Source: an uncultured delta proteobacterium
Lineage (GTDB): Bacteria; Myxococcota_A; UBA9160; SZUA-336
Assembly (NCBI GenBank): GCA_963704165.1
Contig: CAVPHD010000004.1
Span: 581,487 to 645,486, forward strand
DNA: 64,000 nucleotides
Reading direction: 5' to 3'
How positions within the stretch are numbered: position 1 is the first letter of the stretch; each line of letters opens with the position of its first letter. The notes beneath the pieces are model-generated. The model saw nothing but the letters and a program-made list of their open reading frames with translations, was not told the DNA's origin and ran no database searches. Positions 29,659 to 64,000 of this stretch are shown here, piece by piece. The position numbers and the translations under genes were made by a program.

Positions 29659-30594
29659 GTGCTGCGGCACCTGCTTCGCACGAGCGACCTGACGCCCGGC
29701 GACCTCGAGCACCTGCTCGCGCTCGCCGCTGCGTTCAAGTCCGACCCGCAAAGCGCGCGCACGCGCCTTCACAACGAGTCGGTCGTGCTCTACTTCAACA
29801 AACCCTCGACGCGCACGCGGATCTCGTTCGAGACCGCAGTGGCGAGACTCGGGGGGACGCCGATCGGTGTCGGGGCGACGGATCTTCAGCTCGGCCGCGG
29901 CGAGACGATCGAGGACACCGCGGCCGTGATCGGCCGCTACGCTCGCGCCTTCGTGATCCGCACCTTCGCGCACGAAGACGTCGAGCGCTTCGCCCGTGTC
30001 TCGACGATCCCCGTCGTGAACGCGCTCACCGACGCGCACCATCCGTGCCAGAGCCTGGCGGACCTGCTCGTCCTGCGCGAGAAGACCGGCGCGCTCGCGG
30101 GCCGGAAGCTCGCCTACGTCGGCGCGGGCAACAACGTGACGCACAGCCTGCTCGAGGCCTGCGCGCTCGCGGGCGTGCACACGGCGGTCGCCACGCCGAC
30201 CGGCTACGCACCCGATCCCGCGATCGTCGCGCGCGCGCGCGAGCTCGCGCGCGAGAGCGGCGCGCGGATCGAGATCGGCACCGACCCGCGCGAGGCGGTG
30301 CGCGACGCGGACGCGGTCTACACCGACACGTGGCTCTCGATGGGGGATCCGGAATCGGAACGCGCGAAGCGGCTCCGGGCGCTCGGCCCGTACCGGGTCG
30401 ATGCGCGGCTCATGTCCTGCGCGCGGCCCGCTGCGATCTTCATGCACTGCCTGCCCGTGCACCGCGGCGAAGAGGTCGACGCCGAGGTCGTCGACGGTCC
30501 GCGCTCGGTCGTCTTCGCACAGGCCGAGAACCGGCTTCACACCGCCGTCGCCGTGCTGTCCGCGCTTCTCGACGGCGCGCTCGAGGGCGCGTGA
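29659..30594 (+). CDS. arcB: Ornithine carbamoyltransferase (likely catabolic)
   Basis: KPSTRT, HPCQ, YTDTW, MHCLP, QAENR. Confidence 0.92.
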   Translation: MLRHLLRTSDLTPGDLEHLLALAAAFKSDPQSARTRLHNESVVLYFNKPSTRTRISFETAVARLGGTPIGVGATDLQLGRGETIEDTAAVIGRYARAFVIRTFAHEDVERFARVSTIPVVNALTDAHHPCQSLADLLVLREKTGALAGRKLAYVGAGNNVTHSLLEACALAGVHTAVATPTGYAPDPAIVARARELARESGARIEIGTDPREAVRDADAVYTDTWLSMGDPESERAKRLRALGPYRVDARLMSCARPAAIFMHCLPVHRGEEVDAEVVDGPRSVVFAQAENRLHTAVAVLSALLDGALEGA

Positions 30595-31514
30595 TGCGCG
30601 TCGTGGTCGCGCTCGGCGGGAACGCGCTCCTTCGCTCCGGCGAGCGCCCCGAGGTCGAGGTGCAGCGACGGAACCTGCGCCGCGCCGCGGGCGCGATCGC
30701 GGAGATCGCGCGCGAACACACGCTGGTGTTGACTCACGGGAACGGCCCGCAGATCGGCTTTCTCGCGCTCCAGTCCGAGGCCGCGGCCGAGGCGTCGGGT
30801 ATCGGCGCGCGCCCCGACCCGCTCGACGTGCTCGGCGCGCAGACCGACGCCGTCATCGGCTACCTGATCGACCAGGAGCTCGCACCGCTCCTGCCCGGCC
30901 GCGAGATCGCGACGCTGCTGACGCAGGTCGAGGTCGATCCCCGCGACCCCGCGTTCGGCACGCCGACCAAGCCGATCGGCCCGGTCTACGACGAAGCGCG
31001 TGCGCGCGCGCTCGCGGCCGAGCGCGGCTGGTCGATCGGCGAGGTCCACGGCGGATTCCGCCGCGTCGTCGCGTCACCCGAGCCGAAGCGCATTCGCGAG
31101 ATCGGCGTGATCCGCCGGCTCGTCGACTCGGGCGTGATCGTGATCTGCGCGGGCGGTGGCGGAATCCCCGTCGCCGTCACCGAGTCGGGGGCGCTTCGCG
31201 GCGTCGAAGCCGTGATCGACAAGGACCTGACGAGCGCGCTCCTCGCCGTCGAGCTCGCCGCCGACGTGCTCCTGCTGCTGACGGACGTATCGGCGATCTA
31301 CGAGGACTGGCCGAACCCCGCGCAACGCCCGATCCGCCGCATCACTCCCGCCGCCCTCCGCGCCCGCACGCTCCCCGCCGGCTCGATGCGCCCGAAAGCC
31401 GAAGCTGCCTGCCGCTTCGCCGAACGCACCGGCAAGCGCGCCGCCATCGGCGCCCTCGAAGACGCCGCCGGGCTGCTCGCGGGAACGGCGGGGACGAGTG
31501 TCGGTGCCGAGTGA
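30594..31514 (+). CDS. arcC: Carbamate kinase
   Basis: VVALGGNAL, THGNGPQIG, PTKPIG, RRVVASP, GVEAVIDKD, GSMRPK. Confidence 0.95.
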   Translation: MRVVVALGGNALLRSGERPEVEVQRRNLRRAAGAIAEIAREHTLVLTHGNGPQIGFLALQSEAAAEASGIGARPDPLDVLGAQTDAVIGYLIDQELAPLLPGREIATLLTQVEVDPRDPAFGTPTKPIGPVYDEARARALAAERGWSIGEVHGGFRRVVASPEPKRIREIGVIRRLVDSGVIVICAGGGGIPVAVTESGALRGVEAVIDKDLTSALLAVELAADVLLLLTDVSAIYEDWPNPAQRPIRRITPAALRARTLPAGSMRPKAEAACRFAERTGKRAAIGALEDAAGLLAGTAGTSVGAE

Positions 31515-32019
31515 TGTACGGGGTGAGCGGCGGGTATCGGCGCGAGGAAGGTCGAACCTGCGACCATGAACCGGCTCGGATCGCCCGGACGGCTCGTTGC
31601 GCCGTATTGCCGTGGGGGGTGCGTCAGGGGTACGCTGATTCCCGAGAGCCACACGGTTTCGATGTTTCGTGTCGCGACACGCATCGTCGCCTTCGGCAGG
31701 GGCGTTGCTTCTCTCGATCTGTTCCCTGGGCTCTTCGGCCGTCGGGGCGATTCGACGGCGTTCCAGCTCGGATGCAAGAAGGTGATCCCGCATCATGCCG
31801 ATCGTCGCGCAGCTGGTCGTGATTGCACTTCGCGTTGCAGCGCTGTGCGCGTGTATCGTGTACCTCGACGCCTGTTAGCAGGTCGCTGACGAAGCAACTC
31901 GAAACGAGTGTGCGCGTGTCGCCGTCGTCGTGAAGCGGACGTCGGGGAGTGCCGGTCGAGGGTGGGCGAGTCGAACGAATCCGCAGCGGACGTTGTTCTA
32001 CCAGCGAACCAGCTCTTGC

Positions 32020-32447
32020 TCGCCTTGATGGGTGGCTACCGGCTCGACGCGTCCGGCGTTCTCGACGCGAGCTGCGAGAGCTTCGTGCCGATCGAGGTCG
32101 CGATCGATCCGGGCGAGTACACGCGGCGGCTGCGAGCGCAGGATCCAGGCCACCGAGCCGTGGACTTCCGGGGCGAGAAGCGCAGCAACGCGACGCATCG
32201 TTCGGCGACGGATCCCGAGCGTCGATTCGCGTCGAAGGGAACGACGGGAAGCGGAGCGATTCCTGGGTACACGGTGAACGCGTTGATGGAGAACCGACAC
32301 AGGATCTTGTTGGGCATCGGTATCGAGATCTTTCGATCGTCGGCGTCGGAGACGGAAGGATTCAAGAGACTGCTGCAACGTGCGCGCCGGCGCCTGCGGT
32401 TCAAGCCGAGCACGATTGGCGCGGAGAAGGGTTGGGCATCCGCGTGA
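32020..32447 (+). pseudogene. IS5/IS1182-type transposase internal fragment
   Basis: DFRGEKRSNATHRSATDP...GYTVNALMENRH; N- and C-termini absent. Confidence 0.8.
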
Positions 32448-32563
32448 CGAGGGGATGGGAAGAACCAGAGGGGTTCTGGCGGCCGGGAACGGACGTCATG
32501 ACGAACGCAGCGCCACTACCTTGATCCAGCCCGAGCGAAGAGGGAAGGAAGCGCCAATGGCGC

Positions 32564-32674
32564 TCACCCACCGGTGAGTGAGTTCACGTGCTCGGGCCGG
32601 TTCATGGTGACGGTGGCGACGCCCTTGGCTCTGCGCTCGACGCGTACGGGCTGGCCCGTATTGCGATCCTGCAC
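32564..32674 (-). pseudogene. Enoyl-CoA hydratase N-terminal stub
   Basis: GVATVTMNRPEHVNSL, then truncated. Confidence 0.55.
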
Positions 32675-32679
32675 CGCGC

Positions 32680-33159
32680 CTAATCGCGCTGCGCGTTCCG
32701 CCGCGCGCCGCGCAGCGCCCCGATCGCGGCCTCCCACGCGCCCTCGCTGCAGAGCCCGCGCATGGAGGCGTCCTCGTACTCGGCGAGCAGCGCCTCGAAG
32801 CGCACGAAGAGCTCGCGCTCCTCGAAGCGAACGTGCCGCTCGAGCAGAGCCGCGAACTCGGCGAGGACCGGCGCGCTCGCGCCCTCGCGCACCAGCTCGC
32901 GAAGCCGCGCGTGATCCGCGCGCGCGCGCTCGACTCGCGCGGTCTCGCCCGCCTCCTCGAGCCTCGGAAGCAGCCAGCGCTCCTCGATTTTGAAGTGTGG
33001 CTCGAGCTCCGCCGCGAACTTCCGGCACACGTCCTGCCACTGCGCGCCGAGCGCGCCCACATCGTCCGCGCGCTCCGCCGCACGCCGCGTGCGCCGCGCA
33101 AGCACCAGCGCGCCGTGATGATCATCGGAGAGCGGCCGCAGATCCGGATGGCGCTTCAC
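32680..33159 (-). CDS. Hemerythrin-domain protein
   Basis: LSDDHH, HFKIEE, DH, HVRFEERELF. Confidence 0.85.
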   Translation of the reverse strand: MKRHPDLRPLSDDHHGALVLARRTRRAAERADDVGALGAQWQDVCRKFAAELEPHFKIEERWLLPRLEEAGETARVERARADHARLRELVREGASAPVLAEFAALLERHVRFEERELFVRFEALLAEYEDASMRGLCSEGAWEAAIGALRGARRNAQRD

Positions 33160-33590
33160 GTGTCGCTCCCGGCCACGGCGATCTCGTAGCGCGCGAGCTC
33201 GGCCCCGCACTGCCGGCACTTCGCGGGCCCACGCTCCGACCAGCCCGGGCGCGCCTGCGTCCAGCGCCCGCAGGCACCGCACTTCCGCGCCCGGTCGTGG
33301 TCGTCGGCCATCGTGAACTCGCTGAACGACCCCTCGACGCACCAGCGCCGGAAGCCCGGCATCAGCGTCTGGCGGTGGAACTCGTGTTCGACCCAGCGCC
33401 GCAGCGCCTCGCCGTCCGTCCAGAACGTGGTGAACAGGAAGCGCCGCTCCGCCGGCCGCTCCCAGACCACGGCCTGTAGACAACCCGCGACCGCCCGCGC
33501 CTCGCGAAGCGTCCGCTCGAGATGCTCGCGGAGCTCGGCCTCTCCGGCTTCGGAGCACCCGAACTCGGCGAGAACCAGAAGTGGGGTCAT
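33156..33590 (-). CDS. Antibiotic biosynthesis monooxygenase (ABM)-like protein with C-terminal CxxC..CxxC
   Basis: ARAVAGCL...TFWTDGEALRRWVEHEFH; CGAC...CRQC. Confidence 0.65.
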   Translation of the reverse strand: MTPLLVLAEFGCSEAGEAELREHLERTLREARAVAGCLQAVVWERPAERRFLFTTFWTDGEALRRWVEHEFHRQTLMPGFRRWCVEGSFSEFTMADDHDRARKCGACGRWTQARPGWSERGPAKCRQCGAELARYEIAVAGSDT

Positions 33591-33694
33591 GGAGCCAGCA
33601 CTATATCGCCGATGGCGGCGTGGAATCCGCCGATACCCGCCTGACTCGCGGCCTCTGCGAAGTGCTGATCACCGAGGCGCTCGCGGCCGGGCTC

Positions 33695-33843
33695 TTCCTG
33701 TCTGCATAGTGCCTTTCCCCGAACCCGACGGGCGGCACGTTCCCGATCGAGCTGCGCGGCCCGCGGTTGTCGAACCCGTCGACCCACGCAAGTGTCGCGA
33801 ACTCCACGTCTTCGACGTTCCCCCACGGACCGCTGTGCCGACG
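33695..33843 (-). pseudogene. IS3-family transposase C-terminal remnant
   Basis: GPWGNVEDVEFATLAWVDGFDNR...IGNVPP. Confidence 0.75.
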
Positions 33844-33937
33844 AGGCGTACGCCACCCTGGCAGCGCCCACTCAGGCGTACCGCCGAAAGCGCCAACCAC
33901 CGAAACAACTCATCCGAGTCGCTTCGTCAGCAGGCTG

Positions 33938-36523
33938 TTAGGGTGCCTGAGGTCCCCCTAGCTCTCTCGACCGTGTTGCCACCAACGCGGGCAGGAGGCT
34001 GCCGAGAACGGCGAGAATCGCCGCGCCCCCGCAGACCGAGAGCACCACGTCCGAGGCAAGCAACGGCTCGATACGCCAGCCGATCGATTCGGAGAGGAAA
34101 CTGCATACGACGCTCGACCAGAGCGCTCCCACAGCGATTCCAAGCGTCGAACCGAGAATGCCGACCAAGCTCCCGGCCAAGGTGATGATCGCGACCACGT
34201 TCGAGCGCGTCGCGCCTGCGGCGCGAAGAAGCGCGAACTCCCGCCGACGGGACCGAATCGAGCCGAAGATCAGGCTCAGGAGCGAGACGACACCGAGGCC
34301 ACAGACGAGGGCGATCGGTACCGAGAGGAGCGCGCGATACTTCTCGGCAGAGCGCGCGACCCACATTCGCGCCTCCCGACCACGAAGGAAGAAGAGCGGC
34401 TGAGAGCTCTCGATGCGACGCAAGGACTCGACGACTTCCTCGTCCGGCGGGCTGACCCAGAACGCGGCCATCCAGCAGGTTTCTTCAGCGTTTGCGAACA
34501 CTCGGTCGAAGACGGCTTCATCGAGGAGGAGCGACGAATTTCTTCCCGCCGTTCCACTGACGGAGGCGCCGATCCGAAACGAGCGCGGTCCGTCTCGCGT
34601 CGGGAGGGTGATGCGGTCACCGACATCGAGTCCGAAGCGCTTCCCGAACGACTCGTTCATCGCGAGATCCCCTCGCTCGAGGATCGCCCGCGTCTCCCCT
34701 GGATTCGGACTGATGAAGCGGAGTTGGCCACGCAGCGCAATCACGTCCGTGGAGAAGGAGCTGACGGTGATCTCGGTCTCGCGAAACGGTACTTCGACGC
34801 CACGCAACGGTGCGATCGCCTCGACCCGGTCATGCGCGCGCAGCATCTGAATCGTCGCGGGCGAGATCGGCTCGAGGCCGTTGCCCCCAAACGGGTCACC
34901 CGCCAGGAGAACGACTGCAGAGTCGCCGTAGAGTCCATAGTAGTAACCGTCGATGCTTCCGGTATAGCTTCCGATCGTAGTCACTCCCGCAACCAAGCCT
35001 GCGGCGATCGTGGTCCATGCGGCGAGCGTAAGAGAGGTCTCGACGGGTCGATCGCGGAGCGATGGGCCGATCAGAAACCCGATGCGCGGGATGACTCGAC
35101 TGATCCACCCGTAGGGATCCGCACCGCGGTCGATCAGTCGGTGTCCAAGACCGGCGGAGAGGGCGATTCCTCCAACCACTCCGGCCGCGATGCGAAGTGC
35201 GCCGGGTGCGGGACTCTCCAACCATGCGATGGCCAGAAGAACGGATCCGAGCACTGCGAATCGCGAGGCTTGCAGACGTGTTCGTGTGAGGCGGACTGCT
35301 CCGCGGCCCAGATCGATCAGCTCGAACGGGCCGATCTTCGCTGCGCGGCTTGCTGCAGGTACCGCGGCCGCCACGACGCTGACCATTCCAGTCACGATTC
35401 CGATCGCGACGGTCGAGAGCGCCACTCGCGCCTCTCCGAGCTCTACGCCCTGCTGCACCACGGACGCCACGGAGATCACGCCGAAGACAGCGCGCGTGAG
35501 GAAGGGCGCCGCTGCGGCTCCGAGCACGGTTCCCACGCCTGCGAGCACGAAAGAGTCGATGAGCATGGCGCGACCCACTCGTGCGCCTTCCATCCCGGCC
35601 GCACGGAGAAGGGAGAGCTCCTCGAGTCGGCGATCGATCGACATCGAGCTGACGGCGTAGGTGAGCAGAGCGGATGTCGCGAGTGCGACGAGGACGATGG
35701 CCCAGAGTGCGCGTTGGTAGGTCCGCAGAAGGGAGAGCCCGAAGCTCTCCCGTTCGGTGTCCCGTCCGACCGAAAGGCCCACGCCGATCGCCCGTTCGAT
35801 CCTCGATGCGATTTCGTCGATGGGTCGGCTCGGATCGACGGCGAGATCGATGCGCTCGAAGCGACCATTCATCCCCAGAACTTGCTGCAGTGCGAAGATG
35901 TCCATTGCCGCGATCTGGCCACCGAACGCCCCGGCCATCTCTCCGCCGAGCACGCCCCGCACGACGAGATCGATGGGCTTCCCATCGAGAGTGAGCGCCA
36001 GGGGGTCCCCGTCGCCGATCCCGAGTCTGGTCGCGAAGGCGGCCGATATGACGACGGAGTCCGGAAGCGCGAGCAGACGGACGGCATCTCGCACGACCAC
36101 GCCCGCGCGCGAGATCTCGTAGCGTCTCACATCGTTCTCGCCGAGAAGATCGAGCCCGATCACGTGAAGGGATCGCCCCTTCTCGGGACCGGACGCGACC
36201 CGAAACGTGCGCCGGATCAGGGGAGAGGCAGCGCGTACCCCGGCAAGCGCGCGGACCTGCTCCAGCACATCCTCGGAAACACCTACTTTCCCCGCGGAGA
36301 TCGAGAGCGAGGCAGATCCGATCAACGCCTGCGTCGTTGTTTGTAGCTCCTCTTGGAGGGAGCGCGACGCCACTTCGACGCTCATGGCGAGTGCGACGCT
36401 CGCTGCAATGGCGAGGCCCGTGAGAACGGACACGACGAAGCGATCGGAGAGCTGCGATCGAATCGAGAGCAGGATCGAGAAAGGCAATCGGGAGGTGCTC
36501 CCGATCAACCATTCGAAGCTCAC
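33938..36523 (-). CDS. ABC transporter permease, duplicated MacB/FtsX type
   Basis: Two periplasmic + FtsX halves; RLEELSLLRAAG and RRREFALLRAAGA. Confidence 0.88.
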   Translation of the reverse strand: MSFEWLIGSTSRLPFSILLSIRSQLSDRFVVSVLTGLAIAASVALAMSVEVASRSLQEELQTTTQALIGSASLSISAGKVGVSEDVLEQVRALAGVRAASPLIRRTFRVASGPEKGRSLHVIGLDLLGENDVRRYEISRAGVVVRDAVRLLALPDSVVISAAFATRLGIGDGDPLALTLDGKPIDLVVRGVLGGEMAGAFGGQIAAMDIFALQQVLGMNGRFERIDLAVDPSRPIDEIASRIERAIGVGLSVGRDTERESFGLSLLRTYQRALWAIVLVALATSALLTYAVSSMSIDRRLEELSLLRAAGMEGARVGRAMLIDSFVLAGVGTVLGAAAAPFLTRAVFGVISVASVVQQGVELGEARVALSTVAIGIVTGMVSVVAAAVPAASRAAKIGPFELIDLGRGAVRLTRTRLQASRFAVLGSVLLAIAWLESPAPGALRIAAGVVGGIALSAGLGHRLIDRGADPYGWISRVIPRIGFLIGPSLRDRPVETSLTLAAWTTIAAGLVAGVTTIGSYTGSIDGYYYGLYGDSAVVLLAGDPFGGNGLEPISPATIQMLRAHDRVEAIAPLRGVEVPFRETEITVSSFSTDVIALRGQLRFISPNPGETRAILERGDLAMNESFGKRFGLDVGDRITLPTRDGPRSFRIGASVSGTAGRNSSLLLDEAVFDRVFANAEETCWMAAFWVSPPDEEVVESLRRIESSQPLFFLRGREARMWVARSAEKYRALLSVPIALVCGLGVVSLLSLIFGSIRSRRREFALLRAAGATRSNVVAIITLAGSLVGILGSTLGIAVGALWSSVVCSFLSESIGWRIEPLLASDVVLSVCGGAAILAVLGSLLPALVATRSRELGGPQAP

Positions 36524-51987: not shown

Positions 51988-53361
51988 ATGTCGTCCCGCG
52001 AGCAGGCCCAACGGCACCTGATCCCGCACTTCACGCGCAGCAACGTGTGGCACGCCGACGACTTGCCGGTGCTCGAGCGCGGAGAGGGGTGCTACGTCTG
52101 GGACGCCGGCGGCGACCGCTGGCTCGACGGCCTTTCGGGGCTCTTCTGCGTGAACATCGGCCACGGGCGCGCGGACCTCGCGGACGCGGCGGCTGCACAG
52201 ATGCGCAAGCTCGCGTTCGCCACGAACTGGGGCTACGCGCATCCACCGTCGATCGAGGCCGCGCGCAGGATCGCCGAGGTCGCGCCGGGCGATCTCGACC
52301 ACGTCTTCTTCGTCAGCTCGGGATCGGAGGCGGTCGAGTCCGCGCTGAAGCTCGCGCGCAACTACCACGTCGCGCGCGGGGAGCCGTCGCGCGTGAAGGT
52401 GATCGCGCGGACCTGGTCGTACCACGGCACGACGCTCGGCGCGCTCGCCGTGACCGGAATCCCGGCGATGCGCGAGCCGTACGCGCCGATGCTCTGGGAC
52501 GGCGTGGTGCGCGTGCCCAACACGCTCGACGCTCCGCCGGGTGCGCCGGGAGCCCCGGCGCGAGAGCTGCCGAGCGTGCGCGCGATCGAAGAGGCGATCC
52601 TGCGCGAGGGCCCCGAGACCGTCTCGATGCTGATCGCCGAGCCCGTGCAGAACGGGCGCGGCGCGGTCGTACCGCCCCCGGGCTACTGGCCCGAGCTGCG
52701 CAGGATCTGTGACACGTACGGCGTGCTGCTCTGCGCCGACGAGGTGATCAACGCCTTCGGCCGGCTGGGAACGTGGTTCGCGAGCGAGCGCGTCGGCGTC
52801 GTGCCGGACCTGATCACGTTCGCCAAGGGCGTGACGTCCGCCTACCAGCCGCTCGCGGGCGTGGTCGTGCGACGCCCGGTGATCGAGGCGATCTGGGATT
52901 CGCCGGGCGGCTCGTTCGTGCACGGCTCGACGTTCGGCGGCCATCCGGTCGCGACCGCGGTGGCCGTCGCGAACCTGAACGCCTTCCGCGACGAGAAGGT
53001 CTTCGAGAACGTCCTCGCGAACGAGGCGCACCTGCGCTCGCTTCTCGAGGACGTCGCTTCGCGGCACCGCTGCGTGCGCGAGGTCCGGGGGCAGGGGTAC
53101 TTCTACGCCGTCGAGCTGATGGCCGACCGCGATTCCGGCCGCGATCTCGACGCGGATCAGACGACCGCTCTTCGCGGCGGCCTGCTGCTCCGCTACATCC
53201 GCGAGGCGCGGATCTTGATCCGTCCCGACGATCGCGGCGCGACCTTCATGGCGATCGCGCCTCCGCTCGTGGCGGACCGCGATGTTCTCGCCGACCTGGC
53301 CGAACGTCTCGATCGCATCTGCACCCGCGTCGATCAGTACATCGGAGGAAATCCCAGATGA
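51988..53361 (+). CDS. Class III aminotransferase, probably taurine-pyruvate aminotransferase
   Basis: SGSEAVE, SYHG, DEVI, PDLITFAKG, HGSTFGGHP; stop overlaps xsc start. Confidence 0.85.
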   Translation: MSSREQAQRHLIPHFTRSNVWHADDLPVLERGEGCYVWDAGGDRWLDGLSGLFCVNIGHGRADLADAAAAQMRKLAFATNWGYAHPPSIEAARRIAEVAPGDLDHVFFVSSGSEAVESALKLARNYHVARGEPSRVKVIARTWSYHGTTLGALAVTGIPAMREPYAPMLWDGVVRVPNTLDAPPGAPGAPARELPSVRAIEEAILREGPETVSMLIAEPVQNGRGAVVPPPGYWPELRRICDTYGVLLCADEVINAFGRLGTWFASERVGVVPDLITFAKGVTSAYQPLAGVVVRRPVIEAIWDSPGGSFVHGSTFGGHPVATAVAVANLNAFRDEKVFENVLANEAHLRSLLEDVASRHRCVREVRGQGYFYAVELMADRDSGRDLDADQTTALRGGLLLRYIREARILIRPDDRGATFMAIAPPLVADRDVLADLAERLDRICTRVDQYIGGNPR

Positions 53362-55070
53362 CCCGCATGTCTTCCAGCGAAGCCTTCGTCGAGACACTCG
53401 TCGCGCACGGAGTCACCGACGTGTTCGGAATCGTCGGATCGGCCTACATGGACGCGCTCGACCTCTTTCCTCCCGCGGGAATCCGCTTCTGGTCCGTCGC
53501 TCACGAGCAGAACGCCGCGCACATGGCCGACGGCTACAGCCGCGTGACCGGACGCCACGGCGTCTGCGTCGCGCAGAATGGGCCGGGGATCACGAACTTC
53601 GTCACCGCGATCGCCGCCGCATACTGGGCGCACTCGCCGGTCGTGTGCATCACGCCCGAGGCCGGCACGATGGGAATCGGCACCGGCGGTTTCCAGGAGA
53701 CGGAGCAGCTGCCGATCTTCTCGAAGATCACGAAGTTCCAGACGCACGTGAATCGACACGAGCGAATCGCGGAGCTCACCCACCGCGCGTTCGTTCTCGC
53801 ACTCGCGGAGCGTGGGCCGGTGCAGATCAACATCCCGCGCGATCTCTTCTTCGGCGAAGCGGACTACGTGATCCGCGAGGCGCGTCCGATCGAGCGAGGG
53901 GCCGGCGGGGCGTCGAGCCTCGACGCGGCGGCGCGGCTGCTCGCCGGCGCGCGCTTTCCGGTGATCATGGCCGGCGGGGGCGTCGTGATGGGCGACGGCC
54001 GGAGCGAGCTCGTCGCGCTCGCCGAGCACCTCTCCGCGCCGGTGATCGCGTCGTACCTGCACAACGACGCCTTCCCGGCGAGCCACCCGCTGATGTGCGG
54101 TCCGATCGGCTACCAGGGCGCCAAGTCGGCCATGCACGTCGTCGCGCAAGCCGACGTGATTCTGTGTCTGGGCACGCAGGCTCGGCCCGTTCGGAACGCT
54201 GCCGCAGCACGGGATCGACTACTGGCCGAAGCAGGCGAAGCTGATTCAGGTCGACACCGACCACCGCATGCTCGGCCTCGTGAAGGAAGTCGAAGTGGCG
54301 GTTCACGGCGACGCACGTGCGGCAGCCGCCGAGCTCCTGGCCCGCACGAAGAACCTCGAGATCGCGGGACAGAAGACGCGCGAGGCGCGCCTGACCGAGG
54401 TCGCGCGCCGAAAGCAGGAGTGGGAGGCGGAGCTCTCGTCGTGGTCGTCGGCGGACGGCTCGCCGATCTCGCCGCGCCGCGCGCTGCGCGAGCTCGAACG
54501 CGCGATGCCGAAGCGCGCGATGGTGACGACCGACATCGGCAACATCTGCTCGGTGGCGAACAGCTACCTGCGCTTCGACGAGCCGCTCTCGATGTTCGCG
54601 CCGATGATGTGGGGCAACTGCGGCTACGCGCTGCCGACCGCGATGGGCTGCAAGGTCGCCGCGCCCGATCGCCCGGCGATCGCGTACATCGGCGACGGCG
54701 CGTGGGGCATGAGCCAGACCGAGGTCATGACCTGCGTGCGCGAGCGACTCGCGGTCGTCGCCGTGGTCTTCAACAACCGGCAGTGGGGTGCGGAGAAGAC
54801 GCAATCAGATCGACTACTACGGCAGCCGCTTCGTCGGCTCGAACCTCGACAATCCGTCCTTCGCCGGGAATCGCGCGCGCGATGGGTGCGGACGGCGTGA
54901 CCGTGGACGCGCCCGATCAGGTCGGGGACGCCCTGCGCGCGGCCGTCGCCTCGAATCGTCCGACCGTGCTCGAGATCATGTGCAACGACGAGCTCGGCGA
55001 ACCCTTCCGCCGCGACGCGTTGAAGAAGCCCGAGCGTCTGCTCGCGAAGTACCGGGCGTTCGGAGGCTGA
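53358..55070 (+). CDS. xsc: Sulfoacetaldehyde acetyltransferase (ThDP enzyme), about 3 frameshifts
   Basis: SEAFVE...FGIVGSAYMD, HEQ, QNGPGITN, TDIGNICS, GDGAWG, QWGAEK, ELGEPFRRDALKKP. Confidence 0.9.
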   Translation: MTRMSSSEAFVETLVAHGVTDVFGIVGSAYMDALDLFPPAGIRFWSVAHEQNAAHMADGYSRVTGRHGVCVAQNGPGITNFVTAIAAAYWAHSPVVCITPEAGTMGIGTGGFQETEQLPIFSKITKFQTHVNRHERIAELTHRAFVLALAERGPVQINIPRDLFFGEADYVIREARPIERGAGGASSLDAAARLLAGARFPVIMAGGGVVMGDGRSELVALAEHLSAPVIASYLHNDAFPASHPLMCGPIGYQGAKSAMHVVAQADVILCLGTQARPVRNAAAARDRLLAEAGEADSGRHRPPHARPREGSRSGGSRRRTCGSRRAPGPHEEPRDRGTEDARGAPDRGRAPKAGVGGGALVVVVGGRLADLAAPRAARARTRDAEARDGDDRHRQHLLGGEQLPALRRAALDVRADDVGQLRLRAADRDGLQGRRARSPGDRVHRRRRVGHEPDRGHDLRARATRGRRRGLQQPAVGCGEDAIRSTTTAAASSARTSTIRPSPGIARAMGADGVTVDAPDQVGDALRAAVASNRPTVLEIMCNDELGEPFRRDALKKPERLLAKYRAFGG

Positions 55071-56760: not shown

Positions 56761-57681
56761 TCAGCGCGACGCTCGCGCGCGCGATTCGACGAAGTACGCA
56801 AACGTCTCGCTCGTGGTCTTCTGCGGGCGGTAGCCGAACTCCTGAACCAGGCGCCGGTTCGAGAGCACGGGGCGATAGCGCAGGAAGCCGACCTGCTCGG
56901 GGCCGTACTGCGTGAGCCCGAGCTTCGAGAGCACCCACAGACCGGCTTGGAGGAGAGCGGGCGGAATTTCGATGTACGGCTTGCCGAGGCGCCGCGCGAT
57001 CTCGCGCACGGTGAGCGCACCGTCGCCCGCCAGGTTGTAGCAGCCCGTGCCCCCGCGTCGGATGCCGAGAAGGATCGCGCCGACCACGTCCTGGTCCCAG
57101 ATGAAGACGAACGGGCTCGCGGAGCCGCCGACGCCGAGCACGAATCGGCCGTCGAAGAGGTCCGTGATCTGGTTCTTCGTGCTGGCGCCGAGGATCGTGC
57201 CCGGGCGCAGCACCAGCTGCAGAAGCTCGGGGTGCTTCGCGCGGTACTCGGCGAGCATCTCCTCGACCTGCCGCTTGTGGTCGGAGTAGGCGAACTCCGC
57301 GTTGCCGCGAAGCGCGTGCGACTCGTCGAGCCACTCGGGGTTGTCGGCGTGGTAGCCGTAGGCGGCTCCGCTCGAGGTGTACACCAGCTTGCGTACGCCG
57401 GACTCCAAACACGCCTCGAGCACGTTGCGCGTTCCACCGACGTCGACCTCCCACTCGAGCGCTCGATTCGAGCCGCGTCCGGGCGTGACGATCGCGGCGA
57501 GGTGAACGACGACGTCCGGACGATGACGCCGGAAGCTCGCGGCGCACGCCGCCGCGTCTCGAACGTCGAGCGCGTCGGTGGTCACCCCCGTCGGAGTCTC
57601 CTGCGCGGGCAGGGGGCGCAGATCGCTGGCGACGATCGCCTCGACCCCCCCGGGCTCGGCCGCGAGCGCGGCGACGACCTG
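56761..57681 (-). CDS. NAD-dependent epimerase/dehydratase, 5' truncated at the junction
   Basis: VVHLAA, YTSSGAAYG, YSDHK; N-terminal GxxGxxG missing. Confidence 0.85.
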   Translation of the reverse strand, partial: QVVAALAAEPGGVEAIVASDLRPLPAQETPTGVTTDALDVRDAAACAASFRRHRPDVVVHLAAIVTPGRGSNRALEWEVDVGGTRNVLEACLESGVRKLVYTSSGAAYGYHADNPEWLDESHALRGNAEFAYSDHKRQVEEMLAEYRAKHPELLQLVLRPGTILGASTKNQITDLFDGRFVLGVGGSASPFVFIWDQDVVGAILLGIRRGGTGCYNLAGDGALTVREIARRLGKPYIEIPPALLQAGLWVLSKLGLTQYGPEQVGFLRYRPVLSNRRLVQEFGYRPQKTTSETFAYFVESRARASR

Positions 57682-58102
57682 AGCAGCGGCTGGTGGCCAA
57701 CCCGGAACTGGAGGCCCGCATGGTGGTGAACATCCCCCGTCCAAGGGGCAGCACCGTGGCTGGCTGACCTTCTCCGCCAGGCCTTCGTGCACGACACCTG
57801 GCGGCACCTCTGGGATCCTGGCCGCGCCGCGGCCTCGTGGCTACTTCGATCCGCGCTCCCTCGATCTGGCCCGCCAACGCCCCACCGTGTTTCACGTGAA
57901 GTGCTGCGTGGCTGACGACGACTTGCTCGTCACCAGCGCCAACCTCAGCGACAGCGCCCAGCTCGACAACTGCGAGCTCGGCATTCACTTCCCCTCCGGC
58001 AGCCGTGCCGACGCCGTGTGGCAGCACTTTGACCGCCTCATCCAGCGGCAGCCCCCTGCACTGGTGCCGATCGAGACGCCCCTCCATGGGGGCACTCAGT
58101 GA
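57681..58102 (+). CDS. DrmC-like phospholipase D nuclease, C-terminal part (frameshifted, 5' truncated)
   Basis: RMVVNIPR, YFDPRSL, HVKCCVAD, TSANLS..AQ..N.ELG. Confidence 0.7.
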
Positions 58103-58475
58103 CCCGCTGACTCCTCGCGGCCCATCAGATCGCCAGCTGCCACAGCCTCCGTGGGGTAGGTGATCCGATCCAGAATCACCTGGATGCGTTCACCGAACCG
58201 CTGGGCTTGCTCGTTCACCAGCCGCTCTGCCAGATCGATGTCACCGCCACTGCGCAGGGTTTTTGCAGGATCGTCTGCCGCGACAACTCCACCAACTGCT
58301 CCACCCGCACCACCCGCTGCCGCAGGGCCTGCACGATCAGCTCGCGGTAAACGATGCAGTGATAGAAGCGGAAGTCCGGATCCATCTGCCCCATCTCCTG
58401 GGCAATGGTGAAGCGCAGATCCTGCAGCTGCCGATAGGCGGCCTGCACGCTCGCCAGCGCAGTGGCCTCATCCAT
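58096..58475 (-). CDS. Hypothetical helical protein (one frameshift)
   Basis: MDEATALAS...RQTIL continues as LRSGGDIDLAERLVNEQAQRFGERIQVILDRI; start overlaps upstream stop. Confidence 0.5.
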
Positions 58476-59451
58476 GGGAGTGTCCCCGCCGGGATTGACG
58501 CATGGCTTTGTTGGCCTGGGCCTGCAGCACCATCAGCTCCCGCAGCTGAGCGCCGATGCCCTCGATGTCGTCGCTGAGCCGGTTGAGCACCGGCCCGATC
58601 GAGCCCGCTCAGCGCCGCGAAGCGGTCCTGCAGGATCGCCATCTCTTCCCGCAGCTGGGAGAGCTCCTCAGCCTGCAGGGCAGCCCCTGCTCTCGGGGGC
58701 CGGGGGATGGATCGCGAGCCAACGCTCACCCAGGCCCGTGCGTTCCCCGGCCAGCTGCACGAAGGCCCGCTCCACATGACCCAGCAGCGGTTGCGTCTCG
58801 ATGCCATCCAGCACCTGCAGCGCCTGCTCCAGGCCGGCCTGCACGGGGTAGGGATGGTGGCGGCCGTCGCCAGGATCATTGCGCGCTGGCCTGCAGTTCC
58901 ATCGGCATTTCCGCCAGGCGCAGCACCGCCGCATGCCACGACAGGGAATGAAAGGCCGTATCGGCCTTGGAGTGGGAGGCGTGGTGCCGGTCCTGCTGGA
59001 GCTTGATGCACAGCCCTCGGGTTTCCTGCAGCAATCCAGTGAAGCGGCGCAGTTCACCGGCTCCCTCTGGCTTCAGCCGCACCTGCTCGGGGAGATGACG
59101 CCAGAGATCGTGGATCAGACTGCCCGTGCGCCGCGTGCCGCGGTCGCTGCTCAGCAGCACCTCCCAGCGCTCATAGAAGTTGTAGGGCTCCGGCTGGATC
59201 TGCGTCAGCAGCGCCTCCAGCTCCTGGCGGGCCTGGTGCAGATCATCGGGTTCTTCCCGTTGATAGGCCCTGATGTTGCGGCCCTCGCTGCGGAGGTCTT
59301 GCAACACCTGCACCTTCACGGGCACCGCCAGCTCGAGCAGCGCCAGCAGCAACCGGCCGGCCAGCAAGGCCAGGCCGCGCTCCTTGTCCAGGGACACCGC
59401 CGCCTGAAGACTGCCGTAATGCACATGCTCTAAGGCAATTAGCAGATCCAA
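58468..59451 (-). CDS. Hypothetical protein with RxxxxH (HEPN-like) motif and coiled coil (frameshifted)
   Basis: DRHHASH at 58972-58992; later pieces AEELSQLREEMAILQDRF and DDIEGIGAQLRELM. Confidence 0.5.
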
Positions 59452-59584
59452 CCTATTGCGCCATTCTCCAATGATGCCCGGAGGATGCTGGCTGGATGTC
59501 CGTGAAAATTGACAGTTACTATCTTCATGCGGTGCTTCGCAGAAGGCGATTGCAACCGCCATGCCGCCCATGCACGATGGAGCG

Positions 59585-60055
59585 ATGAGCACCAGCCCGC
59601 TGCGCTGCCACCTGCTGATCGGCCCCCCCCGACAGTGGCAAGACCACGTTGGCCCATAGGTTGGCACCGCTGCTGTCAGGTGCCGGTGGCGAGCCTGGGT
59701 TGGTGCTCTCCACCGATGTGATCCGCGCTGAGCTGTTCGGTGATGCGGCGGTGCAGGGGCCCTGGGATGTCATCCGCACCCTGTTGCTGCAGCGCTTGCA
59801 GGCCGCAGTAGAGGCGGGTAGGCCGGTTGATCATCGATGCCACCCACGCTCGCCGCATGCGCAATGCCCTCAACCGCCAGGGCAGCAAGCAGATCCAGCC
59901 CCATCGCTATGGGCGGCTGCTGGATCTGGAGCGGCTGCTGTTCCTGATCCGCCTGCTCACCAGCTTCAACGGCCTCGACGAGGCCGACCCGTGCACAGCC
60001 TCGGCGCTGCTGCAGATCTGCAACCCCCCGCCCCAGGGGGACCTGGCCGAACGGG
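59585..60055 (+). pseudogene. Decayed, internally deleted copy of the kinase-WYL gene at 62037
   Basis: Near-identical PLRCHLLIGPP, VLSTDVIRAELFGD, DATHARR joined directly to RY.RLLD.ERLLFL...PPQGDLAER. Confidence 0.8.
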
Positions 60056-60124
60056 GTGTCCATACCCTGGCTCCAGGCGGGCCAGACTTGAGGGCTTCTA
60101 CCGCGAACGACGGAGTGTGCTTGC

Positions 60125-60550
60125 GTGTTTTTCCCCGCCGGCGCCCTCAATCGCTTCCACGACGCCCAGAATGCCGGTGCGCCCCCTGTTGTGGAGGTCG
60201 CGCTGGCTGAATTGCGCTCTGGCAGCAAGCGCAACCACTGGATCTGGTTCGTGCTGCCCCAGCTCCGCAGTCTCGGCCGCTCGGCGAACGCCCAGCTCTA
60301 TGGCATCGCAGACCTGGCAGAGGCCCTGCCTACCTGGCGGATACCGCTGCTGCACCAGCAGCTGGAGGCCGTGATGGAGGCGTTCAGGGAGCAGCTCAAC
60401 CAGCCGGGTCAGGGCCTGGAGCAACTCATGGGCGGCGGGTTGGATGCCGCCAAAACCGTGAGCAGCCTCACCTACTCGAGGCCGCCGCTGTGCTTGCACG
60501 CTGGCGACGCTCGAATCGCTCCTGAGGTCAGTGCGAGATCCACGCCGTAA
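60125..60550 (+). CDS. DUF1810 family protein (degraded C-terminus)
   Basis: LNRFHDAQ, ELRSGSKRNHWIWFVLPQL..LGRS..A..YGI. Confidence 0.8.
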   Translation: MFFPAGALNRFHDAQNAGAPPVVEVALAELRSGSKRNHWIWFVLPQLRSLGRSANAQLYGIADLAEALPTWRIPLLHQQLEAVMEAFREQLNQPGQGLEQLMGGGLDAAKTVSSLTYSRPPLCLHAGDARIAPEVSARSTP

Positions 60551-60820
60551 CTCAATCAATCAATTCGAATATCCAGATTCACCGCCCAGCCGCCCTGCTC
60601 GGCGATGTGGCAGAGAAAGCGCAGCAGGTTTTCTGGCCGGTCCACCGGGTTGAGCTGGGGCTGCTCAGGATCCGGTTCAGGTCGATGCCGGGCACCGAGC
60701 ATGAGCGCAGCACCTCCACCAGGGTGCTGCCGGGATCGCTGCAGCCGACCGCTCGGCCAGGCGCAGAAACTGCTCAAAGCCCAGCGACCCCTGGCTGTCG
60801 GCACGGAAGCGGAATATGGC

Positions 60821-61187
60821 TCAGCCCTCCTCCGGCTCGTCTGGGTTGTTGAGCTCCAACACCGTCCACTCTTGGCTCCACACCGGTCCGCAGGCTATCC
60901 CGCGTGTTGTGAGCTCAAACGCCACCCAGTTCGGCAGCTCCACACTCCGCAGGAACGCCGGGATGTCCAGCAGATCCTCGGCCGCTTCCTGGGCTGCCAG
61001 GTATTTCTGCCACAGCGGTTTGAGCTCCTCGGCCAGGTAGACGGGCTCGTCGGGCACCTCATGGCACCAGCCACCGCGCAGGGTGGGGGCGTTGGCCTGG
61101 CCGTCGTCGTGGAACACTCTCTGTCCCGTCAGCGGACAGAAGAAGTTCCAGTCGTCCAGCTCCAGCTGGATGATCTGCAGGGCTCAT
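60821..61187 (-). CDS. Hypothetical acidic protein (frameshift after codon 2)
   Basis: ATGAGC(C)CTG restores MSLQIIQLELDDWNFFCPLTGQRV...GIACGP. Confidence 0.55.
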
Positions 61188-61259
61188 ACCCTTGTCGGCG
61201 AAGAGCCAATGTTGGGGGCCCCTACTGCGAACACCGGGGCGCACCCGGGTGTTCTTAGC

Positions 61260-61652
61260 TCATGCCAACACGGTCACGGTGTTGCCGTACCGCCCCAGCT
61301 GCCGGTCGGCCGTGAGCAACAGCATTGGCTCCGTTCTGCTCTGGCACACCAGCAGCCGGTCAAAAGGATCGCGATGGTCGCCATCACACTCCAGCTCCGC
61401 CACCGCCAGCAGATGGGTGTTGCGAATCGGCAGCCAGCGGAACCCCTGCAGCGGCACCTGGCGCTCCAGTTCCGCCAGGTCCACCTGCAGCCGGCCGATC
61501 GACACCTTGATCGCCATCTCCCACAACGAGGCCTGACTCACAAACACCTCCGCCTCCGGTGCCTGCGCCTGCTCCACCACCGGCGCCGGCAGCCGCGGGT
61601 CGTCACTCAGCCACCACAGCACCAGATGGGTGTCGAGCAGCAGCCGCGTCAC
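61260..61652 (-). CDS. vapC: VapC/PIN toxin
   Basis: LLLDTHLVLW, VSQASLWE, HRDPFDRLL, LTAD. Confidence 0.92.
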   Translation of the reverse strand: MTRLLLDTHLVLWWLSDDPRLPAPVVEQAQAPEAEVFVSQASLWEMAIKVSIGRLQVDLAELERQVPLQGFRWLPIRNTHLLAVAELECDGDHRDPFDRLLVCQSRTEPMLLLTADRQLGRYGNTVTVLA

Positions 61653-61875
61653 TGCAGCGCCTCGAACAGGTGATCCAGCGGTGCATCGAAGTTGTCCGCA
61701 AGCTGGATCTGGTCGCGCATCGCCCCAGGTGCTGCCACCGGCTGGGCCGCAGCCTGCCAGCCCACCAACCGCGCAATCGGCACCCCAGAGCGGGCGATCA
61801 CCTCTCCCCCTGCTCCACCAGGTGCAGCAGCTGGGAGAGCTGGGTTTTGGCCTGGTGGATGTTCACCGGATCCAT
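61649..61875 (-). CDS. Phd/YefM-type antitoxin (one frameshift)
   Basis: VNIHQAKTQLSQLL...IARSGVPIARLV...DNFDAPL; GTGA overlap with toxin. Confidence 0.85.
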
Positions 61876-61904: not shown

Positions 61905-62036
61905 TAGTTCGCCCCAGACGGCTTCGCTGCACCGTCATGGGAGCCGATCACTGAGCTCAGCCGGCTAGTGTCGATTCAAGGTCGTCACTCGCAAGACAGC
62001 CTGGTCCTGGCCCGCCAGCCCGTTCAGGATGGGGGG

Positions 62037-64000
62037 ATGACCCCAGCACCGCTGCGCTGCCACCTGCTGATCGGCCCGCCCGGCAGTGGCAAGACCACCC
62101 TTGCCGGCCAGCTCGCGTCCCTGCTCCAGGGAGCCAGCGGCGAGCCGGGCCTGGTGCTCTCCACCGATGTGATCCGCGCCGAGCTGTTCGGTGATGCCGG
62201 TGTGCAGGGGCCCTGGGATGAGATCCGCGCCCTGATGCTGCAGCGGCTGCGCGAGGCGGTGGCGGCCGGCCGGCCGGTGATCGTGGATGCCACCCATGCC
62301 CGCCGCCCCTGGCGCCTGCTCTACACCCAGCAGCTGCAGCTGCCCCAGCCGGTGGAGTGGATCGGCTGGTGGCTCACCACCCCGCTGGAGCAGTGCAAGG
62401 CCTGGGCGCTGCGCCGTGATCGTCCGGTGCCCGAGGCGGTGATCGTGGAGTTCCACGCGAACATCAACCACCGCTTCTTCCAGCCCCACCGCGCCGAGGG
62501 CTTTGCAGCGCTCGTGGCCCTCAACCCCGCTGCCGGGGAAGGCACCACAGACGACGACCTGCGCGGCCGCCTGGCTGGCCTCACGGGCCGCATCCGCAAC
62601 GCCTGCAACCGCCAGCGCGCCGTAACCGCCCAGCTGCACCGCTACTCCCGCCTGCTCGATCAGGAACGCCTGTTGTTCCTGCTGCGGCTGCTCACCAGCT
62701 ACGGCGGGCTCGACGAGAGCGATCCGGGCACCGCCGCTGAGCTGATCCAGATCTGCAACCCGCCGCCCCAGGGCGATCTGGCCGAGCGGGCTGCCGCCTA
62801 CCTGGCCAGCTGGAAGGAAGTGCACGGCGGCAACAGCGACGTGTACGCCGATGTGGAGGCGATCCGCGCCGACCTGGCCTGGCTGGAGGCCAACGGCTTC
62901 TTCCGCCTCGACTGGCAGGGCGACCAGCCCATCACCCTCGAGGTCGAGGGGGCCCACACCGCCAGCAGCGTGAACGGTGGCTATTCCGCCCTGGCTGAAC
63001 GCCATGCCTTCCGTCGCGTGTTCACCCTGTTGCGCCACATCCTCAAGGAGCCCTTCGATGCACCGGAGAGTGAGGGCGAGCCGCAGCAGCAGGCGCCAGC
63101 GAAGGCGCCGCCGCGCCGCAAGCGCGCCCGCCGCGACAGCAGCGAGTTCAGCCCCCTCTACCGCCACCTGATCGACCGCCTGGCGGCGATCGAGGGTGGC
63201 TATCGCCCGAGCAGGAGGCCGTGTTCCGCCGCGACGTGGAGCACGTGCTCAGCCCCTACGGCTTCCTCCCCCAGGTGACGGGCCGGCCCCACAGCCGCCG
63301 CCAGGGCTACGCCATCGGCACCGCCCTGCTCTCGGCCGACCAACTTCTTGAGGTGCACGCCCAGCTCAAGGCCTCCCTCGATCGCCTCAGCGACCAATCC
63401 CAGAAGCCCCTGCTGCTCACCCTGGAGGATCGCCTCAAGCGCGCCGGCATCCTGGCCAGCGATGGCAGCCCCGGCCGTCGCCATCAGGCCAAGCGCGCCC
63501 TCGCCCACCGCTCCATCACCGCCGAGGTGCCCGGCACCCTGGCCAGCCCCGAGCAGGCGGCCCGGCTGGAGCGGGCGATCCGCGACCGCCGCCGCGTGTG
63601 GCTGCGCCACCAGCCGGAGGCCAGCCGTTTCCGTGCCTGGCCCGTGCAGTTGCTCTTCCGCACCATCAGCTGGTATCTGGCCTTTGAAACGGCCGAGATC
63701 GGCCATCAGCGCGGTCTGATCCGCTGCCTGCGTGTCGACCGGCTGGTGCTGCTCAATGAAGACGGCAATGCCCGCCGCAGCAGCGACGCCGAACACGACG
63801 ACGCCCTGGCCCGCCTTCAGCGCCTGCTGCATGTGTGCGGTGGCCTGTTCTTTGGCACCTCGGTCGACGATCAGCTGGTGGTGCTCCAGCCCAGCGGTGG
63901 CCGCAGCCCCCAGCACCCCTGGGGCCTGCTGCGCTTCTCCTGCACCCCTGCCGTTTTCGAGCTGATCCGCGAGGAACCCCACCGCTTCCCGCCGGAGCAC
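62037..64000 (+). CDS. P-loop kinase (AAA_33-like)-WYL fusion protein (frameshift near 63210; runs off window)
   Basis: GPPGSGKT, STDVIR, VDAT; after frameshift AWPVQLLF..ISWYLAFE...LRVDRL. Confidence 0.82.

Follow-up and report, generated by a model that had tools for sequence, protein, structure and literature searches.

The minus-strand gene near the end of the analysed DNA very probably encodes a HEPN-type RNase, and we favour the explanation that this protein is a self-restrained enzyme, a putative abortive defence that travels with a DISARM operon. The window, meaning the whole stretch of 64,000 nucleotides that was analysed, is the end of contig C4, and its last 6.3 kb are Cyanobium-type DNA. 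The features discussed below are located as follows:

57681..57682, no strand: junction between a host NAD-epimerase gene, whose 5' end is lost, and Cyanobium-type DNA; a probable chimeric assembly
57682..58102, plus strand: 3' remnant of drmC (DISARM PLD nuclease), cut by the junction at about residue 170 of 282 and frameshifted
58096..59451, minus strand: the HEPN-like gene (about 446-457 aa), with a HEPN-like domain, a coiled coil and a C-terminal helical domain
58146..58469, minus strand: conserved, unnamed C-terminal helical domain with a weak HRDC likeness
58468..58475, minus strand: ATGGATGA, internal in-frame codons for Met-Asp-Glu
58492..58685, minus strand: predicted long helix or coiled-coil linker, residues 252-315 (pLDDT about 50-60)
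58710..59430, minus strand: N-terminal HEPN-like helical domain, approximately residues 3-243 (pLDDT 86.1, pTM 0.85)
58972..58989, minus strand: R-H-H-A-S-H motif (R150-H155), the predicted catalytic Rx4H
59023..59025, minus strand: conserved Glu (E138), 12 residues N-terminal to the motif Arg
59573..60207, plus strand: AAA_33 kinase-WYL remnant, divergent from the HEPN-like gene, in a position that is not conserved in relatives

The original prediction had described two open reading frames in 58096-59451, coupled by an overlap, and had allowed that they might be one protein. Sequence comparison indicates that they are one gene, because intact homologues exist and because six one-base indels of the window copy are absent from a contig of run X1. 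The homologues are mostly 442-447 aa long (446 aa when intact), and the minus-strand frame ending at 58879 matched 164 longer proteins; the 120 matches listed are 81-98% identical, and those among them that carry a name are assigned to Cyanobium or Synechococcaceae. In comparison with three intact loci, the indels fell at about 58879, 58847, 58691, 58606, 58493 and 58263, and the 14.4-kb X1 contig, which spans 57682-59730 with 111 differing letters, contains none of them. The supposed overlap ATGGATGA (58475-58468) proved to lie inside the gene, where homologues read PVDEAT, and the reading as two translationally coupled genes was ruled out by these in-frame codons and by the full-length homologues.

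The six indels are most simply long-read errors. A host gene at 53280-55070, thiamine-diphosphate enzyme-like by eye, is likewise split over several frames, which suggests indel errors across the whole assembly. The start codon is uncertain (TTG at 59451); the other loci are homologous from 59418-59430 onwards. The HEPN-like gene is under purifying selection, with a dN/dS of 0.06-0.16 in all nine pairs compared.

The composition of the DNA changes at the junction, and the CG observed/expected ratio drops from 1.27-1.62 to 0.77-0.91 beyond about 57.7 kb. On the host side, 56777-57681 is matched at 86% by a genome of the same genus, in which the epimerase gene continues to its intact start. From 57682 on, in the middle of drmC, the matches are to Cyanobium-type loci, and contigs of X1 and X17 continue there into sequence unlike the epimerase gene. 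The Cyanobium-type segment was absent from all 20 relatives that were checked. This shift in composition, the matches that split at 57681/57682 and the absence from relatives argue for a chimeric join, and thus the gene most likely belongs to a picocyanobacterium and not to the genome of the host assembly, the last 6.3 kb of C4 being most likely a misjoin as judged from sequence. A true horizontal island was considered and rejected on the same absence from relatives, and also since both flanking genes are cut in mid-frame, the segment reaches the contig end and no contig examined spans the junction. The defence island of the original prediction was therefore retained as a DISARM context in relatives, but not as an island of the host genome, to which the gene should not be credited.

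Low CG ratios combined with low GC (0.45-0.57) were also seen in other contigs of the host assembly (C6 near 196001, C3 at 30001-34000, and C8 at 1-2000). Two of these stretches lie at contig ends, and they are possibly further foreign joins or islands. A Cyanobium-type locus at 80% identity (L009) stands in a record titled Chitinophaga pinensis MAG, which is likely misbinned. The run shares, all below 0.3, give no evidence on habitat.

The R-H-H-A-S-H motif on which the prediction was built was found at 58989-58972 on the minus strand. The warning that so short a motif may occur by chance was justified, as the window, in its 231 frames of at least 150 aa free of stops, has 57 occurrences of R[NDH]xxxH, and about 5% of the sequences obtained by shuffling the N-terminal 240 aa also contain it. 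The motif alone is thus no better than chance, and its support comes from conservation. It is kept in 120/120 close homologues among the matches listed. Three other subfamilies (B, C and D) first came to light by their C-terminal matches in iterated genome searches, and they carry the motif as RNDDEH in B, RNRTSH or RNRKSH in C, and RDSxxH (RDSAGH, RDSAEH, RDSEAH) in D, with a chance of 0.02-0.08 per shuffled N-terminal region. A comparison of the profiles of A, the window's subfamily, and B gave 95.4% (E 1.9e-8), but their N-terminal profiles alone gave no significant alignment (E 0.59, score 11.7 against a shuffle mean of 13.6). Only E138, R150, H155 and R173 are invariant in an N-terminal alignment of 34 sequences from the four subfamilies.

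When 1.84 billion representatives (50% identity, fragments included) were searched with a profile, 92 matched, and 51 of the 75 new ones, those of at least 300 aa, were kept for a motif count. R[NDH]x3H was present in 42 of the 51, mostly as RN-x3-H. The search profile itself held the motif, so the 17 representatives whose sole matched stretch lay past it were counted apart, by hand, and 12 of them carry it. Among the nine without the motif, two are the C-terminal domain on a different N-terminus, and seven keep the His and lose the Arg (P0299, P0308, P0318, P0321, P0322, P0327 and P0337); these Arg-less members are possibly inactive or use another basic residue. All 51 representatives and five references, with no selection for the motif, were placed in an alignment of 56 sequences in which all but one of the other rows are 10-20% identical to the reference P0004. 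H155 is kept in 54/56, R150 in 48/56, and N, H or D directly after the Arg in 53/56 (N in 47, H in 4, D in 2). E138 is found in 37 of the 56 members, and 50 have Asp or Glu in a column at about residue 80. Both the Arg and the His, whose conservation had been named as a check, are thus kept across four subfamilies and most distant members. Weak matches in G721, G261 (an amidase) and L115 were dropped as false family members.

The full-length model (pLDDT 72.7) is all-helical, with an N-terminal bundle, a low-confidence long helix at 252-315 and a C-terminal helical domain at 323-438, in agreement with the helical protein with a coiled coil that had been proposed. The N-terminal domain was modelled for a homologue from L016 with 59 sequences, 39 of which were distant rows picked from motif carriers. 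Its helix 128-155 ends at H155 and is followed by a loop (156-160) and a second helix (161-191). PMC3710099 defines the HEPN superfamily by an Rx4-6H motif whose Arg is followed by a polar residue, mostly N, D or H, and places this motif at a helix end, before a loop and a helix. The modelled helices exceed those of small HEPN domains in length, and a hairpin and two helices are additional to them. Typically, though not in every family, HEPN domains have a second conserved acidic residue in helix 2, as Ex3[KR]; E138 is instead part of the motif helix, within E-x-R, and we infer the helix numbering relative to the HEPN fold from the model.

HEPN RNases are dimers that pair two motif helices. 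A homodimer was predicted for residues 1-243 with a score of 0.50, compared with 0.00 for the best of three controls, and passed a mark that 20/30 solved pairs and 1/23 single chains attain. The individual runs scored 0.77, 0.00 and 0.50, with a contact agreement of at least 19% and a pLDDT of at least 75. The predicted interface consists mainly of residues 127-176, including E138, H151, H155 and R173, R150 not being named. This predicted homodimer fits paired HEPN motif helices, and it may also reflect the memory of HEPN folds held by the structure model. The N-terminal domain is modelled with confidence as a helical bundle. Foldseek, proposed as a check, listed no HEPN structure for the whole or the N-terminal model, and the latter had no match at E 0.001. 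VIA likewise returned no HEPN structure for either model, only generic helical bundles, which filled the top 50 of the N-terminal model (best match Z 10.0, rmsd 6.0, 212 aligned). Sequence searches of the PDB with queries A1, A5, A8 and A9 gave nothing credible, and residues 1-245 of P0004 had no usable match in the ESM Atlas. A match of P0241 to a Cas13b cluster in that atlas (0.76) was within the chance range, and no support was taken from it.

The family had no match above the cut-off in Pfam, NCBIfam, PADLOC or PHROGs, and PADLOC, likewise suggested as a check, placed the HEPN-like gene in no model in a meaningful way (best DrmMII, E 0.012, in one of four proteins). Sub-threshold Pfam matches were obtained in 3/55 members, all outside the window's subfamily: HEPN_Swt1 (PF18731; E 0.016, 15.9 bits against a cut-off of 27.5), HEPN_MAE_28990 (PF18737; E 0.014, 16.0 bits against 26.8), each in one member, and DUF3644 (E 0.019), which we take to be a HEPN family. 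Unrelated Pfam families score as well as or above these matches. The failure of all four libraries and the longer helices with their additional elements would also be expected if the protein were an unrelated helical bundle that uses the conserved Arg and His for other chemistry or for ligand binding. We consider this very unlikely, as the exact R-[NHD]-x3-H spacing and the set of residues at +1 are maintained across 10-20% identity, the motif stands at a helix end and the motif helices lie at the predicted dimer interface. The HEPN-like RNase of the original prediction is thus supported by the conservation of the motif, its helix-end position and the predicted dimer, together with the sub-threshold Pfam matches.

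The gene converges on a DrmC-like PLD gene, as previously noted (PADLOC DrmC, E 7.8e-13), and this arrangement recurs in 21 of the 23 loci of the window's subfamily, 15 of which have the full drmA-B-C. In these 21 loci, the last aligned drmC residue is 70-160 bases from the end of the HEPN-like gene; of the remaining two loci, a truncated gene accounts for one and a break at a contig end for the other. Among 401 genomes of the same family, 15 of the 17 close drmC genes (at least 65% identity) adjoin the HEPN-like gene and the other two are cut by contig ends, whereas the 1.5 kb around each of 13 more distant drmC loci contains no member of the family (the count leaves out 12 weaker drmC matches). 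The link with DISARM is tight but confined to one drmC lineage, the loci are therefore not independent, and the link may be one inherited insertion. The immediate neighbours in the 23 loci are drmC and variable genes, with no adjacent minimal nucleotidyltransferase, and no conserved antitoxin gene was found beside any subfamily.

The decayed kinase-WYL regulator from which the gene was said to diverge is present as the remnant at 59573-60207. Co-regulation of the window's subfamily by WYL is not supported, since a kinase-WYL gene lies within 10 kb in only 4/23 loci; the proposed defence context thus holds for DISARM drmABC as the partner, but not for the WYL regulator, which is not a conserved one. 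A second AAA_33 kinase-WYL gene, at 61968-64000 on the plus strand with one frameshift at about 63221, is 77-80% identical to the remnant over 59566-60058. The window also contains, at 60125-61850, a DUF1810 gene and a PIN toxin gene preceded by a small ORF, and, at 60821-61117 on the minus strand, an unnamed 98-aa ORF common to L016. In the DISARM locus of L006 (11416-16102), drmA and most of drmB are missing, and drmC and the HEPN-like gene are intact. In L068 (6968-11527), the gene between the DISARM methylase and drmA encodes a protein of 1520 aa in which two RNA-polymerase alpha-CTD-like domains are fused to a DEAD-type helicase; L001 has a related helicase upstream of drmA.

Taken as a self-restrained effector beside DISARM, the protein would dimerise through its motif helices, as predicted by the model, and its His and Arg would cleave the cell's own RNA in a metal-independent manner, by analogy with known HEPN enzymes. 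The coiled coil and the C-terminal domain would hold the RNase off; this self-restraint is proposed because no antitoxin gene is conserved beside the gene. A phage signal, nucleic acid or protein, might then free the RNase and arrest the infected cell. In such a way of working, the protein would resemble HEPN effectors of the Abi2/Swt1 clade and, in its link with a restriction-like system, PrrC. Intact copies of this single-gene anti-phage candidate from freshwater picocyanobacteria are known from isolates (WP_254988571.1 and WP_254937182.1), and the family, missed by four profile libraries, adds a new C-terminal domain.

A literature search on DISARM, HEPN, HRDC and Cyanobium found no description of the family, which supplementary tables of defence genes could list. 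The closest counterparts are the Abi2/Swt1-like and MAE_28990-like clades, with which, as far as the available part of PMC3710099 describes them, it shares Rx4H, N, D or H after the Arg and a helix-end motif. An upstream acidic residue, restriction-type defence neighbours and the weak Pfam matches are further likenesses, but the family differs in scoring below the cut-offs, in its longer helices and in the Glu of its motif helix. The coiled coil and the unnamed C-terminal domain that are fused to the HEPN-like domain have no counterpart among the HEPN clades in that part of PMC3710099, where the anticodon nucleases PrrC and RloC are also listed as HEPN. Like these two, the protein would be a HEPN effector associated with a DNA defence system that resembles restriction, and it has a coiled-coil element; unlike them, it belongs to no ABC-ATPase or P-loop family (Pfam scans and the all-helical model), carries its HEPN domain N-terminally, and is encoded convergently with the partner operon, not inside it. 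The motif is also of the type found in HEPN-MNT toxin-antitoxin pairs (HepT), and such pairs occur in the same islands, but the protein is three times longer and has no adjacent nucleotidyltransferase. PADLOC identifies the neighbouring operon as DISARM class I (drmA, B, C, D and MI); in contrast to its core genes, the HEPN-like gene is an extra gene of one lineage that fits none of the models for DrmA, B, C, D, E, MI and MII.

The C-terminal domain follows the pattern L-x2-LR-x2-I ... F-x2-[YW]-H-[NC]-[IL]-L ... Q ... I-x2-IL. Judged by eye, its helix pattern and spacing resemble those of HRDC (PF00570), but it has an insertion of about 15 residues and no member scanned has a Pfam HRDC match. 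When aligned with 12 HRDC domains by hhalign, it scored 18.5 (E 0.0036, probability 9%), above all of 80 shuffles (maximum 16.5). The domain also occurs on unrelated N-termini (P0300 and P0313), which suggests that it is a mobile module; these are a 679-aa protein with a weak cold-shock match and a coiled-coil protein.

The weak HRDC alignment and the constancy of the gene beside close drmC, together with subfamily C and D members near DISARM genes, would accord with a RNase wired into DISARM, whose C-terminal domain senses single-stranded DNA or a DISARM subunit and switches the RNase on. PrrC is such a switched-on backup for a type I restriction system, and here the trigger would be DrmAB engaging phage DNA, or the inhibition of DISARM. 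If DISARM does switch the protein on, this would show that DISARM can carry a suicide backup. We judge this unlikely, as the gene is on the opposite strand and so outside the drm operon, is missing beside all the more distant drmC loci, and has in subfamily B a relative that exists without DISARM, besides the non-independence of the related loci. The HRDC assignment is also of low probability: the C-terminal HMM matched none of three HRDC domains of the genome at E 10, and no HRDC structure was retrieved by PDB sequence. The fuller version, an undescribed HEPN family whose HRDC-like domain senses ssDNA made by DISARM and switches on the RNase dimer as an abortive arm of picocyanobacteria, with the sensor reused on other effectors, appears to us just as doubtful.

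The protein family was found in 29 of the 401 genomes, fragments included, and in two or three genomes of two phylum-wide samples; no relatives were found in the viral contigs, phages or plasmids searched. Subfamily C lies directly after a kinase-WYL gene and 3 kb from drmD-drmMI in G699, and 6 kb from mzaBC in G622. In subfamily D, the gene is convergent with kinase-WYL in L103, L105, L108 and L114, adjoins a DarT-like or PDC gene in L106 and L111, and has no clear defence neighbour in L104 and L110. In most of the loci read, C and D members thus adjoin kinase-WYL, drmD/drmMI, DrmC, MzaBC, DarT-like or PDC genes. Subfamily B (L026, L057 and L060-L064), by contrast, follows surE-pheS-NAD kinase in 7/9 loci, the other two being short contigs, and Pfam named no defence gene among its neighbours. 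Subfamily B thus stands among housekeeping genes and is possibly a domesticated HEPN-like gene.

The fixed position of subfamily B, whose members are 57-86% identical to the B reference, and the lack of a conserved antitoxin would be in line with a HEPN RNase that serves in stress or in RNA turnover, not in defence against phages, and is carried as cargo in defence islands. Contigs from two RNA runs also cover relatives of the gene, which is no proof of transcription. Such a role is quite unlikely in our view, since the family is patchy and deeply diverged and repeatedly shares its islands with DISARM, kinase-WYL, toxin-antitoxin and Mza genes, as is typical of defence genes, and we retain the self-restrained defence RNase as the best explanation. 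A conserved, unnamed 170-aa gene recurs beside C and D members (L102:7053-8359, L103:11462-12839, L105, L107 and L108); in L102 and L103 its neighbour is a Cas4-like nuclease gene.
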